Shown here piece by piece: positions 37,583 to 55,983 of a stretch of DNA of 64,000 nt. The number at the start of each line of letters is the position of its first letter. Position 1 is the first letter of the stretch. The position numbers and the translations under genes were made by a program. The notes under the pieces were generated by a model. It did no database searches. It saw only the letters and a program-made list of their open reading frames with translations, and was not told the origin of the DNA. Source of the DNA: Octopus vulgaris (Eukaryota); the NCBI GenBank assembly GCA_951406725.2, contig OX597835.1:45756001-45820000 (forward strand), given 5' to 3'.

Positions 37583-37927
37583 ATAATAAATATTAGGGAA
37601 TAAATCCAAATTTACAGGGAAAAAATCAGATTTAGGATTAAATCCAATTTTATAGTAAAATATTATAAAATATTATTAGAGACAAAACCACTATTTTGCA
37701 AAACAAACAAGGAAAGACTTAATCAATACATAAAATTTTAATAAATAGTCAAAAAATATTCTTAAGACTCTTGGTTCCACAAAATATCATATATATTTCA
37801 TATATATTTTGTGGAACCAAGAGTCTTAAGAATATTTTTTGACTATTTATTAAAATTTTATGTATTGATTAAGTCTTTCCTTGTTTGTTTTGCAAAATAG
37901 TGGTTTTGTCTCTAATAATATTTTATA
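37583..37927 (-). mobile_element. Fold-back PLE-like module with perfect 124 bp inverted arms
   Basis: 37664-37787 is the reverse complement of 37804-37927; unpaired tail 37583-37663 is homologous to the reverse complement of 55745-55826; (TA)n on both sides. Confidence 0.85.
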
Positions 37928-38247
37928 TATATATATATATAATGAAAGTCGTTTCCAGTAACAATCGAAGAATACTTAATTCGTTGGTCACTCATGTGTC
38001 TGTGAGATTGCGGTGATTGATGCAAACAAATTAGTTTCGCTTCACAGATATTTGGAGTTTATTGCTCTTAACTCTGAATCGATGCAAAGAATGAATATAG
38101 ACGACAGAGTGCGTTGAAATGTCGTGACTCGATATAAAATCTTTTCAGGGTATGACAATATACATTTTAACGATATCATTCCAGAAAGCATTTCATATAT
38201 ATTTTGTGGAACCAAGAGTCTTAAGAATATTGTTTTTTTTTTATGTA

Positions 38248-39225
38248 AGGCTGTGAGCTGGCAGAAACGTTTACACCCCGGGGGAAATGCTTAGCGCTAT
38301 TTCGTCTGTCTTTACGTTCTGAGTTCAAATTCCGCCGAGGTCGACTTTGCCTTTCATCCTTTCGGGGTCGATAAATTAAGTACCAATTACGCACTGGGGT
38401 CGATGTAATCGACCTAATCCGTTTGTCTGTCCTTGTTTGTCTTGTCTGTGTTTAGCCCCTTGTAGGTAGTAAAGAAATAGGTATTTCGTCTGCCGTTACG
38501 TTCTGAGATCAAATTTTGCCGATGTTGAATTTGCCTTTCGGTGTCGATAAATTATGTACCAATTGTGTACTGGGGTCGATCTAATCGACTGGCCCCTTCC
38601 CAAAACTTTCGGGCTTTGTGCCTAGAGTAGAAAAAGAATTTTTATAAAAAGGCAGTGATCTGGCAGGAATGTTAGCACGCCGAGCGAAATGCTTAGCCGT
38701 ATTTCGTCTGCCATTACCTTCTGAGTTCAAATTCCGCTGAGGTCGACTTTGCCTTTCATCCTTTCGGGGTCGATAAATTAAGTACCAGTTACGCACTGGA
38801 GTCGATATAATCGACTTAATCCGTTTGTCTGTCCTTGTTTGTCCTCTCCTTGTTTAGCCCCTTGTGGGTAGTAAAGAAATAGGTATTTCGTCTGCCGCTA
38901 CCTTCTGAGCTCAATTTCTGCCGATGTCGACCTTGCCTTTCATCCTTTCGGGGTCGATTAAATAAGTACCAGTTACGCACTTGGGTCGATATAATAGACT
39001 TAATCCGTTTGTCTGTCCTTGTTTGTCCTCTCCTTGTTTAGCCCCTTGTGGGTAGTAAAGAAATAGGTATTTCGTCTGCCGCTACCTAATGAGCTCAATT
39101 TCTGCCGATGTCGAATTTGCCTTTCGGTGTCGATAACTTATGTACCATTTGCGTACTGGGGTCGATCTAATTGACTGGCCCGCTCCACAAAAATTTCTGG
39201 CCTTGTGCCTAGAGTAGAAAAGAAT
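38248..39225 (+). mobile_element. Tandem/composite array of Meta/MESC-type SINE units
   Basis: Heads at 38248 and 38651; TATTTCGTCTG..GTCGA body unit repeated five times with two alternative tails. Confidence 0.9.
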
Positions 39226-39973
39226 TTCATTTTTATACAAATCAAGTCGGTTGTTGAAACTCCTTAAAACTTTAGCAAGATATCCTTAAGTCACATCTTC
39301 TTATGTGCAGTAGAAATTTGTAAGCAACATCAACGCAAAATGAAGTAAAACAGTTAAGGTACCAAAGAGAAAAATGCAATTCTAAACATTACATTATTGT
39401 AATTCCTTACACCCAATAAAGAAGAAACTCAAAAATATTGCCAATAGCTCCAATAAGATAATGAGATTTCTATCATTTATGCCCTTCATGAAACGAAAGT
39501 AGTCTATATGAAAAGGCATTTATACAAGATGTGCAGTTGGTTAGAACCCAGCACCTCAATATTACAGAAGTGATGGTTTAACAGCACAGCCACAACAGTA
39601 CACATATAAGGGGAATTTTTGTGCACGCTGGAGTCTGAGGGTACATTTTTAGAAATTTTCAGTTTCGGAAAGAATTATTGTTGAGGAAATATTTAATGCA
39701 GATTTTATATATTCATATACAGAAATGTTCACAACAGCAGCAGCCATATTTTTCAAACACGGAGTAAATGCTTCTCAATTCCTTCTGAACTCTTTCTATC
39801 GCTTTTATTTCAGCTCTAACGTCGTTGGTTTAATGTCAGTTACCTTGTATTTACAATGACGTGGACTACAGATGAGGGTCTATGCAAATGAGTTAGAACA
39901 AATTTTGGTTTCATATTATTGGGCAATAAAGGCAAAAAATAAATAGCAGTAATAATAATAATAATAATAATGG

Positions 39974-40389
39974 AGGCGCAGGAGTGGCTGTGTGGTAAGT
40001 AACTTGTCTACCAGCCACATGGTTCCGGGTTCAGTCCCACTGCGTGGCACCTCGGGCAAGTGTCTTCTGCTATAGCCTCGGGCCGACCAAAGCCTTGTGA
40101 GTGGATTTGGTAGACGGAAACTGAAAGAAGCCCGTCGTATATATGTATATGTATATATGCGTGTGTGTGTTTGTGTGTCTGTGTTTGTCCCCCTAGCATT
40201 GCTTGACAACCGATGCTGGTGTGTTTACGTCCCCGTCACTTAGCGGTTCGGCAAAAGAGACCGATATAATAAGTACTGGGCTTACAAAAGAATAAGTCCC
40301 GGGTTCGAGTTGCTCGATTAAAAGCGGTGCTCCAGCATGGCCGCAGTCAAATGACTGAAACAAGTAAAAGAGTAAAAGAGTAAAAGAGA
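39974..40389 (+). mobile_element. CORE-type SINE, full length
   Basis: Same family as 2692-3101; inserted in (TAA)n. Confidence 0.92.
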
Positions 40390-40536
40390 ATAATAATAAT
40401 AATAATAATAATAATAATAATAATAATAATAATAATAATAATAATAATAATAATAATAATAATAATAATAATAATAATAATAATAATAAGAAGAAGAAGA
40501 AGAAGAAGAAGAAGAAGAAGAAGAAGAAGAAGAAGA
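40388..40536. repeat. (TAA)n(GAA)n microsatellite
   Basis: Directly visible. Confidence 0.97.
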
Positions 40537-40539
40537 AAA

Positions 40540-41110
40540 AGAATCCTCTTATACCCTGATGCAATACCAGGCAGTGGCTCTCGTGGCTTCTTATCATAAC
40601 TGATTGGATGTGGTATCATGTGTATTGTTTTGACTTGGTAAAAAATATGGACTAACAGTAAATATTCTGCTCAATAGCACAGATTTGCTTGTCAGTTGTT
40701 TGAACCTAACCAGTTGAGCATGTCCCTTAGTGGCTGACGATATGTGCATCTCTGATCATGAGCAGAAGCAGTGGGGGAGCATCATAGCCATGTGTTGAAA
40801 GGAATTCTTTGGGTTTTGGATAATTCACCTCTGGAAATATGGGTGTTTTGTTCATCATCCTTAAACAACCAATATATTCAGGGACTTTTGAGCAGGATGG
40901 GCTGCTCGACCAGAAGAAAATTCTAACTGGGCCCCCACCTACAAGGTCATGCGATGTTAATCTTGATATGAGATCATCATATCGCGCACATATGGTTGTG
41001 ATGCATGTGCCTAGTGTACCCTTATCTGACGGGTAGTCATGATGGATATACTGGGTTTCGTATATTTTACCCCATTGACACTTTGATGGTATGCACTACT
41101 CTCTCACTCA
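40540..41110 (-). mobile_element. Interspersed repeat bounded by trinucleotide arrays, possibly the 5' end of an R4/Dong-like element
   Basis: Sharp boundaries at microsatellites; minus-strand start has nested stems; no intact ORF, so family assignment is inference. Confidence 0.4.
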
Positions 41111-54500: not shown

Positions 54501-54657
54501 GTTTTCATGGGATTGGCATTTTGTTTCTTTGTACTGAAGATTTGTTCATCTTGGTTGGTTACACATGCGTTTTTCTAAGCTGATCTTTAAGATTCAACGC
54601 TTGAACAAATACACACAGACACAGACATGCGTATATATATATATATATATATATATA

Positions 54658-54922
54658 TAGATAGATAGATAGATAGATAGATAGATAGATAGATAGATAG
54701 ATAGATAGAAAGATAGATAGAATAGATAGATAGATAGATAGATACATAGATAGATAGATAGATAAATAGATAGATAGATAGATAGATAGATAGATAGATA
54801 GATAGATAGATAGATAGATAGATAGATAGATAGATAGATAGATAGATAGATAGATAGATAGATAGATAGATAGATAGATAGATAGATAGATAGATAGATA
54901 GATGAATAGATAGATAGATATA
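54658..54922. repeat. (GATA)n microsatellite
   Basis: Directly visible. Confidence 0.97.
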
Positions 54923-55422
54923 GAGTAAAAAATTAATTTAATATTAAATTTTACCAAGTAGTTTCGGTATGAAAAAGAAACATATTCGGTAAAAACTTAT
55001 TCGAGAAGTTATTTTTTTATATATAATTATAACAATAATTAAGGGTTTAGTAATAAGTTGCTTCACCACATACCGAAAATTTAGAAATACCAGCCCCAAA
55101 AACGTTATTTCTTTTCACTATAATATATGATTCCCCAGATATCAATATCCTTAACTCACATAGGTAAAAAGAAGGAAAACAATGAAATCATATAGCCGAT
55201 CGAAGACCGTAATTATTGTCATAATTATATATATATATATATATATATATATATATATATATATATATATATATATATATATATATATAAATTATATTAA
55301 ATTAGAGATAAAACCACTATTAGGCAAATCATACAATGAAAAGCTTAAGCCAATACATAAGATTAATTAAGTTATATTATTTTAAATATATATCAAAATT
55401 ATTAAAAAAAGATAATTAGTAT

Positions 55423-55489
55423 AACACTACGATCGTTTCATGGCTGTCCAATTCTTAAAATTTCGAGTTACAGTCATTCTTCAGGTGAT
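55423..55489 (-). ncRNA. Type I hammerhead, canonical core (left arm)
   Basis: Mirror of 55551-55612 with a longer stem II loop. Confidence 0.78.
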
Positions 55490-55550
55490 TGAAATATTTA
55501 ACTTAGCGAGGTTTAATCAATGAATAAACCTCGCTAAGTTAAATATTTCA

Positions 55551-55612
55551 ATCACCTGAAGAATGACTGTAACTCGAATTGAATTGGACAGCCATGAAAC
55601 GATCGTAGTGTT
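55551..55612 (+). ncRNA. Type I hammerhead, canonical core
   Basis: ATCAC-CTGAAGA-ATGACTGT..ACAGCCAT-GAAA-CGATCG-TA-GTGTT; palindromic stem III, GUA triplet. Confidence 0.8.
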
Positions 55613-55983
55613 ATACTAATTATCTTTTTTTAATAATTTTGATATATATTTAAAATAATATAACTTAATTAATTTTATGTATTGGCTTAAGCTTTTCATT
55701 GTATGATTTGCCTAATAGTGGTTTTATCTCTAATTTAATATAATATAATATTTTACTATAAAATTGGATTCAATCCTAAATCTGATTTTCCCCTGTAAGT
55801 TTGGATTTATTCCCTAATATTTTATTATATATATATATATATATATATATATATATATATATGTATATATATATATGTATATATATATATATATGCGTGT
55901 GTATATATATATGTATATATATATATATATATATATATATGTATATATATACACACACGCATATATATATATATATATATATA

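Follow-up and report, generated by a model that had tools for sequence, protein, structure and literature searches.

The stretch of DNA considered here, referred to as the window, comprises 64,000 nucleotides of the Octopus vulgaris genome (GenBank assembly GCA_951406725.2, contig OX597835.1, positions 45,756,001 to 45,820,000 of the forward strand) and contains five asymmetric palindromes, P1 to P5, whose relationship to Penelope-like elements (PLEs) and mode of formation are the subject of this analysis. In each palindrome, two inverted arms flank a loop and an unpaired tail extends one arm only, distinguishing a tail-bearing from a tail-less arm. The whole 64 kb, which has a base composition of 35% G+C and is rich in microsatellites, was compared with itself by BLAST after microsatellite masking; exactly five inverted pairs with a span of <1 kb and a score of ≥100 bits were obtained, all between 37.6 and 55.8 kb, and hexamer shuffles gave none in each of 10 trials. 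Short-read contigs from four public sequencing runs (X1, X3, X4, and X7, from four studies), one of which may be the assembly's own source, were aligned to positions 44900-50700, covering P2 to P4. The features are as follows, in window coordinates, with the strand in parentheses where one applies.

37553-37581: (TA)n target tract to the left of P1
37594-37663 (-): one-sided 3' tail of P1, of the P5-tail family
37664-37787 (-): tail-bearing arm of P1; its inner 33 nt match the flank at 38199-38231
37788-37803: loop of P1; its last 9 nt extend the flank match of the tail-less arm
37804-37927 (+): tail-less inverted arm of P1, entering (TA)n at 37924-37941
38190-38231 (+): exact 42-nt match to the centre of P1 (37795-37836), the likely donor of a templated insert
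44964-45002: (TA)n tract at the tail-less end of P2
45009-45208 (-): tail-less arm of P2, orientation inferred, with a CTGATGA core-like word and no intact hammerhead
45209-45270: loop of P2, bridged by contigs of X1, X3, and X4
45271-45471 (+): tail-bearing arm of P2
45472-45620 (+): unpaired extension of P2, with an uncertain right limit
47687-47733: (TA)n tract at the tail-less end of P3
47733-47872 (-): tail-less arm of P3
47824-47859 (-): minimal type I hammerhead motif of P3, from core start to cleavage triplet
47873-47882 (-): loop of P3, family sequence extending the tail-less arm, with a 2-nt CG overlap at the turn
47883-48022 (+): tail-bearing arm of P3, with a hammerhead copy at 47896-47931
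47989-48078 (+): first 30 codons of the PLE open reading frame (ORF), running through the P3 tail; 27/30 residues identical to the N terminus of the Octopus sinensis protein P0002
48023-48079 (+): 57-nt tail of P3, followed by (TA)n at 48080-48096
50283-50370 (-): 88-nt tail of P4, abutting a TA-rich tract at 50109-50282
50371-50489 (-): tail-bearing arm of P4, orientation inferred from the tail
50490-50504 (+): loop of P4, likely sequence of the tail-less arm
50505-50624 (+): tail-less arm of P4, with (TA)n at 50628-50645, 3 nt away
55226-55289: (TA)n tract at the tail-less end of P5
55288-55515 (-): tail-less arm of P5
55428-55484 (-): hammerhead motif of P5, copy 1, minimal type I, with a CTGAAGA core and a palindromic CGATCG stem III
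55525-55747 (+): tail-bearing arm of P5
55556-55607 (+): hammerhead motif of P5, copy 2, on the opposite strand
55748-55825 (+): 78-nt tail of P5, followed by a TA-rich tract at 55826-55985
6670-6804 (-): solo P3-family end in (TA)n with a G3-C8 core, stopping ≤1-2 nt from the position of the P3 tail-less end
56538-56619 (-): solo P3-family fragment with a G3-C8 core

The arms are 124/124 nt in P1 (100% identity, 16-nt loop), 200/201 nt in P2 (81.7%, the oldest pair; 62-nt loop), 140/140 nt in P3 (99.3%, 10-nt loop), 119/120 nt in P4 (95.0%, differences at 6 columns; 15-nt loop), and 228/223 nt in P5 (96.9%, 2 mismatches and 5 gap columns; 9-nt loop). P1 and P5 are related (88% identity over 153 nt) and have the tail and outer arm in common, so that the palindromes represent four families and not five. 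Predicted RNA folding energies of −173 to −335 kcal/mol are a trivial consequence of their shape. An earlier note, made from the letters of this DNA, had described five inverted pairs at these positions with arms ranging from perfectly matched to clearly diverged, and had proposed that the process recurred over time; the pairs and the range of identity are both recovered, and the 0-18% divergence of the arms, together with the presence of P2 in independent runs, bears out the recurrence. Its one-sided tails of 58-130 nt are found to be one-sided in all five cases, but when measured to the AT-rich or TA boundary their lengths are ∼70, 57, 88, and 78 nt in P1, P3, P4, and P5 and ∼150 nt, with an uncertain limit, in P2.

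The ends of the tail-less arms lie 0, 1, 0, 3, and 1 nt (P1 to P5) from the nearest tract of at least five TA units, whereas only ∼2% of other window positions are within 10 nt of such a tract. The note's further claim that both ends meet TA repeats is clean for three of the five palindromes; on the tail side of P2 the ∼150-nt extension is followed by a mixed TG/TA repeat, with the nearest pure TA tract 41 nt away, and the tail end of P1 is separated from its tract by 13 nt of AT-rich sequence. Because both flanks are (TA)n, a target site duplication is indistinguishable from the tract itself. The clustering of the palindromes in part tracks the density of TA tracts, 20 of the 56 listed being inside the 18-kb region, a count that is inflated by the splitting of a tract at each insertion.

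Hammerhead motifs are present in two of the palindromes. A strict scan of the 64 kb for minimal hammerheads gave three matches, in both arms of P5 and the tail-less arm of P3, compared with none in 30 shuffles, and these motifs have a long stem II, an extra base before stem II, and a palindromic stem III. PLE hammerheads are described as having a long stem II, an extra base between positions 9 and 10.1, and a palindromic stem III, and as being paired on opposite strands 100-700 bp apart (PMC4209133; papers are cited here by PMC number and for those parts of their text that were available). The core in the tail-less arm of P3, GTGAACA, has G3-C8 in place of C3-G8, and this pair is retained in three of the four P3-family copies in the window (the P3 tail-less arm, 6670, and 56538); in the tail-bearing arm of P3, T replaces C8, the sole difference between the P3 arms. 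Among consensus rows for loose ends in the public-run contigs, the G3-C8 core is found once and altered forms occur in three other rows. An engineered G3/C8 double mutant of the ribozyme of PAc, a Poseidon element of Anolis carolinensis, is partly active (PMC11167929), and the natural core swap given in the papers cited is U3-A8 (PMC4209133; PMC3088659). No report of a natural G3-C8 hammerhead was found in a literature search that left subscription papers mostly outside its reach, and a metagenome scan with the P3 hammerhead pattern gave 0 loci. The P3 family appears to carry a natural G3-C8 hammerhead motif, a putative ribozyme. P1 is truncated short of the hammerhead position.

The 30-residue peptide encoded in P3, whose frame opens at 47989 in the tail-bearing arm and extends past the tail to the TA tract, connects P3 with a group of proteins. 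In a search of 1.84 billion representatives it gave one match, to the first 25 residues of an uncharacterised protein of Octopus bimaculoides (E = 9.6e-5). P0001 matched the O. vulgaris protein P0003 (81% over 48% of the query), and P0003 in turn matched 29 longer proteins of 680-1222 residues. All 29 of these have RYVDD; a CX2-5CxxC linker occurs in 25 of them, and 24 have YxGE[TS] near the C terminus. We take RYVDD and YxGE[TS] to be the reverse transcriptase (RT) and GIY-YIG motifs. The Neptune and Nematis PLEs have the order RT, CX2-5CxxC linker, and C-terminal GIY-YIG, with a preference for (TA)n (PMC8557442), and the P3-family relatives match this order, with a C-terminal endonuclease (EN) motif and, in 25 of 29, the linker. 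The available supplement of that paper includes Naiad and Hydra families from Octopus that target (TA)n; the P3 family belongs to neither, its EN motif being C-terminal and its motif DKS, whereas Naiad has an N-terminal EN and Hydra has DKT and no CCHH. The relatives (P0005-P0033) have TDKS, LYGLRKDHK, and QxxGG[AP]IG in common, and some carry PF28514/DUF8422. The available text of the PMC8557442 supplement, in which long runs are incomplete, did not yield YGLRKDHK, TDKSG, or GGAIG, and these proteins may represent an unnamed PLE lineage. ESM Atlas gave no match for P0001 (0.75); P0003 matched unnamed clusters from eukaryotes, 16-41% of whose members carry DUF8422. The gene model for P0002 (O. 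sinensis LOC115227545) fuses a PLE N-terminal region to a methyltransferase domain and is probably either an annotation chimera or an exonised PLE.

On sequence criteria, P3 is identified as the pseudo-long terminal repeat (pseudo-LTR) of a PLE by its ORF start and hammerhead motif, P5 by its hammerhead motifs, and P1 by membership of the family of P5; P2 and P4 are likely PLE ends, as judged from their layout alone. The orientation of the inverted copy is likewise fixed by the hammerhead or ORF in P3 and P5, by family in P1, and by layout only in P2 and P4. Several results weigh against these assignments. The tails, at 57-88 nt, are longer than the published 30-40 nt. Pfam detected RVT_1 in only one of eight long relatives, with an E value of 0.0016, below the cut-off, and a comparison of the long relatives with the PDB gave no match, so that it is the motifs that carry their PLE label. 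When 32 proteins were compared with the window by tblastn, the single match was at P3 and there was none at P2 or P4; the tails of P1 and P5 also matched none of the 32. The families of P1/P5, P2, and P4 may be too distant from these proteins or may end before the ORF. A six-frame motif search for a PLE RT gave nothing convincing, and a hidden Markov model of the relatives gave only matches with E ≥0.16. An intact hammerhead was sought and not found in P2, which has a CTGATGA core-like word, and none was detected in P4 in the strict scan; no hammerhead family is among the 150 of 173 Rfam matches listed for 36000-58000, and minimum-energy folding of the P5 motif does not give a monomeric hammerhead (z 0.82). 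The 150 of 173 Rfam matches listed are all sub-threshold, are nearly all to microRNA hairpin models, and were dismissed as matches of shape.

The boundaries of the palindromes provide information on how the halves were joined. The tail-less end is constant within a family: those of P1 and P5 stop within a few nucleotides of each other and those of P3 and the solo copy at 6670 within 1-2 nt. The tail boundary is also common to P1 and P5, and to P3 and solo 6670. The turning point is variable; of 15 joints listed from the public-run contigs, 11 map inside P3 and are head-to-head-like. An inverted, 5'-truncated copy, a one-sided tail, and a (TA)n preference are published characteristics of PLEs (PMC8557442), and in vitro PAc cuts and extends both target strands from two start sites that bound the tail, with a predicted dimer (PMC11167929). 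The combination of a fixed tail-less end with a variable turn fits two set starting points for reverse transcription that bound the tail, as for PAc in vitro.

In P3, the loop belongs to the tail-less arm, as solo copies and loose ends at 47882 run through it; in P1, a flank match assigns 9 nt of the loop to the tail-less arm, and in P4 the loop is likely that arm's, since four X3 contigs align from 50491 and have different letters before it. The loop thus belongs to the tail-less arm in all three cases that can be scored, P4 being a likely one, and this argues against a simple snap-back of complementary DNA (cDNA) primed from the tail. The centre of P1 is an exact copy of the 42 nt at 38190-38231, which lie ∼260 nt past the insertion; the junction to this flank-matching segment is identical in the two arms. 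Such a likely capture of flanking sequence is special to P1 among the five, as no exact match of >14 nt to the centre of P2, P4, or P5 exists elsewhere in the window and the 19-nt match of the P3 centre is from its own family; the 42-nt match may instead be another family fragment. Loops are only 9-16 nt in four of the five palindromes.

From these results, we consider it quite probable that P1 to P5 are short head-to-head pairs of element ends in (TA)n, of PLE origin in P1, P3, and P5 and likely so in P2 and P4, and that fold-back of an internally primed cDNA, joined to a cDNA primed at the tail end, is the likely origin of the joint. In the proposed sequence of events, a GIY-YIG endonuclease would nick both strands of the (TA)n target, as expected from the published biochemistry of PLEs, and reverse transcription would begin at two set points on the RNA, one at the end of the tail and one internal, 57-88 nt upstream, a step supported by the fixed ends. 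Both copies are 5'-truncated after only 120-260 nt, at varied places, as the sequence shows. In a step held with modest confidence, the tail-less cDNA would fold back on itself at its 3' end, with microhomology slight or absent, and the strand so made would pair with the tail-bearing cDNA; as a consequence, the loop would remain part of the tail-less arm, and sequence captured ahead of the turn would enter both arms. The arms would be identical at birth and would subsequently drift, so that their 0-18% difference might date the event in the way that paired LTRs do. The present copies are dead fragments.

Fold-back with pairing is the preferred, if insecure, account relative to end-joining because of the shared flank junction in P1, the ownership of the loop, and the 9-16-nt loops in four of five. 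The points against it are that other P3-family joints are often very unequal in arm length (48/101 and 147/46), which end-joining explains equally well, that the P4 turn lacks microhomology, and that a 5-nt indel separates the P5 arms and could mean two RNA templates. According to the end-joining account, there is no fold-back; two PLE cDNAs primed on opposite strands are truncated independently and joined through microhomology; the template would be either a single RNA, copied with strand displacement, or two RNAs engaged by a protein dimer. The unequal joints, common in the P3 family, and the P5 indel are in keeping with it, as are the activity of PAc on both strands and its predicted dimer (PMC11167929), the self-complementary CG overlap at the P3 turn, and three joints in which the sense piece begins within the tail (47882>48026, 47883>48027, and 47882>48079), as would be expected of twin priming on a single RNA. 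It is nevertheless an unlikely, though credible, explanation: loops of 9-16 nt occur in four of five palindromes although arms of ∼55 nt would have been detectable, the loop is on the tail-less arm in three of three, and a common flank junction in the P1 arms is not expected of independent cDNAs unless the RNA was already chimeric.

Improbable, as compared with these, is the snap-back of a single tail-primed cDNA, or the self-priming on an antisense RNA template that has been proposed for head-to-head PLE joints (PMC3846280), with an early stop through TA pairing. Short loops, the identity of young arms, the near-palindromic P5 turn, and the location of the P1/P5 tail-less end in AT-rich sequence able to pair with (TA)n are all compatible with it, but it predicts a loop on the tail-bearing arm, the opposite of what is seen in three of three cases, and the tail-less end of P3 is fixed with only ∼1 nt of TA microhomology. 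Fold-back, as put forward in the earlier note, is retained with respect to the short loops and altered in one respect: with the loop on the tail-less arm, the snapping back of a tail-primed cDNA does not account for it; the note's view of these sequences as PLE insertions with an inverted 5' pseudo-LTR lacking the tail holds for P3, P5, and P1 and is extended by inference to P2 and P4. No direct report of octopus PLE palindromes or of PLE twin priming was found in the literature search, which had subscription papers mostly outside it.

The palindromic shape and TA context are also those of non-autonomous DNA transposons of the miniature inverted-repeat transposable element (MITE) or foldback type inserting at TA, and MITEs and Tc1-mariner elements are active in O. 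vulgaris (PMC13282606). This origin is formally possible for P2 and P4 but very improbable for the group, as such transposons are expected to have symmetric terminal inverted repeats and a structure that is fixed within the family, which are not seen; the tails are one-sided, the turning points variable, and single arms occur solo, and there are hammerhead motifs and a retroelement ORF start.

The bearing of the public runs on the reality of the palindromes differs between families. A single contig spans P2 from 45014 to 45620 in each of X1 and X4, and X3 likewise bridges the turn of P2, all at single-copy depth with 0-2 differences. X7 contigs do not cover the right arm of P2, and no contig among those listed for the four runs bridges the turn of P3 or P4; these absences count against the palindromes although in themselves they prove nothing. 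The summed contig depth relative to single-copy sequence, which gives an order of magnitude only and not a copy number, is ∼17,000-59,000x for P3, 3,000-8,000x for P4, and 3-6x for P2; the P3 and P4 families are very abundant. The young pairs are judged real on the basis of their family-fixed ends, the differences between arms, and the many similar joints in other copies. An artefact of assembly or of chimeric reads, at least among the near-perfect pairs, would draw on the 97-100% identity of the P1, P3, and P5 arms, their abutting microsatellites, and the lack of an independent bridging contig among those listed, but is scarcely credible given the bridging of the 82%-identical P2 in three of four runs, the six differing columns in P4, the coincidence of palindrome ends with family-fixed positions, and similar joints at other copies in short-read contigs; the note had itself thought a pure read chimera unlikely, and P2 supports it.

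The layout itself is ordinary for PLEs, and the palindromes are new members of a published type of insertion. They resemble Pen2a_Av (PMC3846280) in having an inverted 5'-truncated copy joined at its 5' end, a one-sided tail, a (TA)n target, and a hammerhead in the pseudo-LTR, with pseudo-LTR and tail spanning the first codons of the ORF; they differ in that both halves are <260 nt, leaving a bare hairpin, in their longer tails, and in the presence of at least four families side by side in one window. With PAc (PMC11167929) they have in common two fixed starts that bound the tail within the 5' end of the ORF and, as would apply in octopus, the cutting and extension of both strands of an AT-rich target, but the octopus families are of a different clade and have a longer tail; G3/C8 was engineered in PAc and is natural in three of four P3-family copies in the window. 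The available text of the PAc study contains no account of how the inverted joint arises. The hammerhead motifs are similar to the minimal type I hammerheads of metazoan PLEs (PMC4209133) in stem II, the extra base, stem III, and their pairing on opposite strands, and unlike those of PMC4209133 and PMC3088659 in that the natural swap there is U3-A8 and that in P3 is G3-C8. PLE activity in O. vulgaris is both recent and old: 31 families have been active recently, and there was a burst at a distance of 0.2 (PMC13282606). What is new locally is modest: tails of 57-88 nt, a natural G3-C8 hammerhead motif, and ownership of the loop by the tail-less arm.

The note's inference that fold-back is a dominant insertion outcome goes beyond what the window shows; hairpins are a large share locally, but non-palindromic PLE-like ends also lie beside TA tracts at 6670-6804, 13366-13533, and 60135-60288, and there is a fragment at 56538-56619. 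An older and longer inverted pair at 28163-30029 has arms of ∼360 nt (74% identity), a 1.15-kb loop, and short TA runs at both ends; the loop includes a decayed GIY-YIG-like C-terminal frame at 28777-29490, recognized by eye and not significant by hhalign, and the pair is likely a sixth PLE unit. The end at 13366-13533 is a solo member of its family, and the solo insert of 154 nt at 60135-60288, which has a TA tract on each side and a hammerhead-like motif (core CCGACGA), is loosely similar to the 28163/29678 family. A TA-adjacent element at 1159-1706 has two direct copies 427 nt apart and a CTGATGA...GAAA motif on the minus strand; a 29-nt inverted piece at 1678-1706 exactly matches its first copy. 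The direct repeats at 5180-5406/5675-5903 (97%), 12236-12556 (75%), and 60485-60847 (84%), two of which end at TA tracts, are possibly tandem pseudo-LTRs. Other repeats include a near-intact long interspersed element at 22191-26587 (+), with pieces of a CCCH-finger ORF1 and a 1010-residue stop-free frame with endonuclease and RVT_1 domains; an inverted 3' fragment of its family at 55987-56330, directly after the TA tract of P5; and tandem arrays resembling short interspersed elements (SINEs) at 2221-2841 and 38238-39228, with three 3' parts between TA tracts and an array with a 184-nt period. No host gene exon was recognized by eye among the ORFs listed for 12-57 kb, a survey that small exons would escape.

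The arms that are at least 95% identical cover ∼1.9% of the window (978 nt in P1, P3, and P5 and 239 nt in P4). Only if transcribed would such arms give long double-stranded RNA (dsRNA), as a by-product of read-through transcription; such RNA would be a potential substrate of ADAR or Dicer, as the note proposed. Octopus and frog are the most hyper-edited species and rank highest in the share of loci with the capacity for long, near-perfect dsRNA, which in octopus is an exceptionally high 4.4e-3; the frog value is partly explained by palindromic Harbinger elements, and octopus was left out of the repeat annotation (PMC5625713). Squid repeats are widely edited (PMC9068888); the available main text of that paper, and likewise of PMC9989829, has no wording on palindromes or Penelope. 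No direct report on the repeat source of octopus hyper-editing was found in the literature search, although the supplements of the papers may name families. The octopus palindromes resemble the Xenopus tropicalis Harbinger (PMC5625713) as self-folding repeats of ∼200-450 bp with a short loop and no need of a nearby partner, but editing of Harbinger has been demonstrated, and the consensus of this DNA-transposon family is itself palindromic, whereas the octopus palindromes would be made anew at each insertion. Inverted pairs of octopus SINEs, such as 41216-41375 with 43949-44111 (79%), compete strongly as a source of dsRNA. It is a speculative and rather doubtful extension that fold-back insertions of high-copy, TA-targeting PLEs would be the main source of long-dsRNA potential and hyper-editing in octopus, in a role like that of Harbinger, with the rule of loop ownership and flank capture settling the origin of the PLE joint and the G3-C8 hammerhead being a natural one.

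The origin of the inverted joint of PLEs is unsettled in the papers cited, and the thousands of short copies in octopus allow loop ownership and the correlation of arm lengths to be counted. In annotation, hairpins of this type are also easily mistaken for MITEs or for the precursors of microRNAs. The possible link to the hyper-editing of octopus RNA is the part that is worth following.

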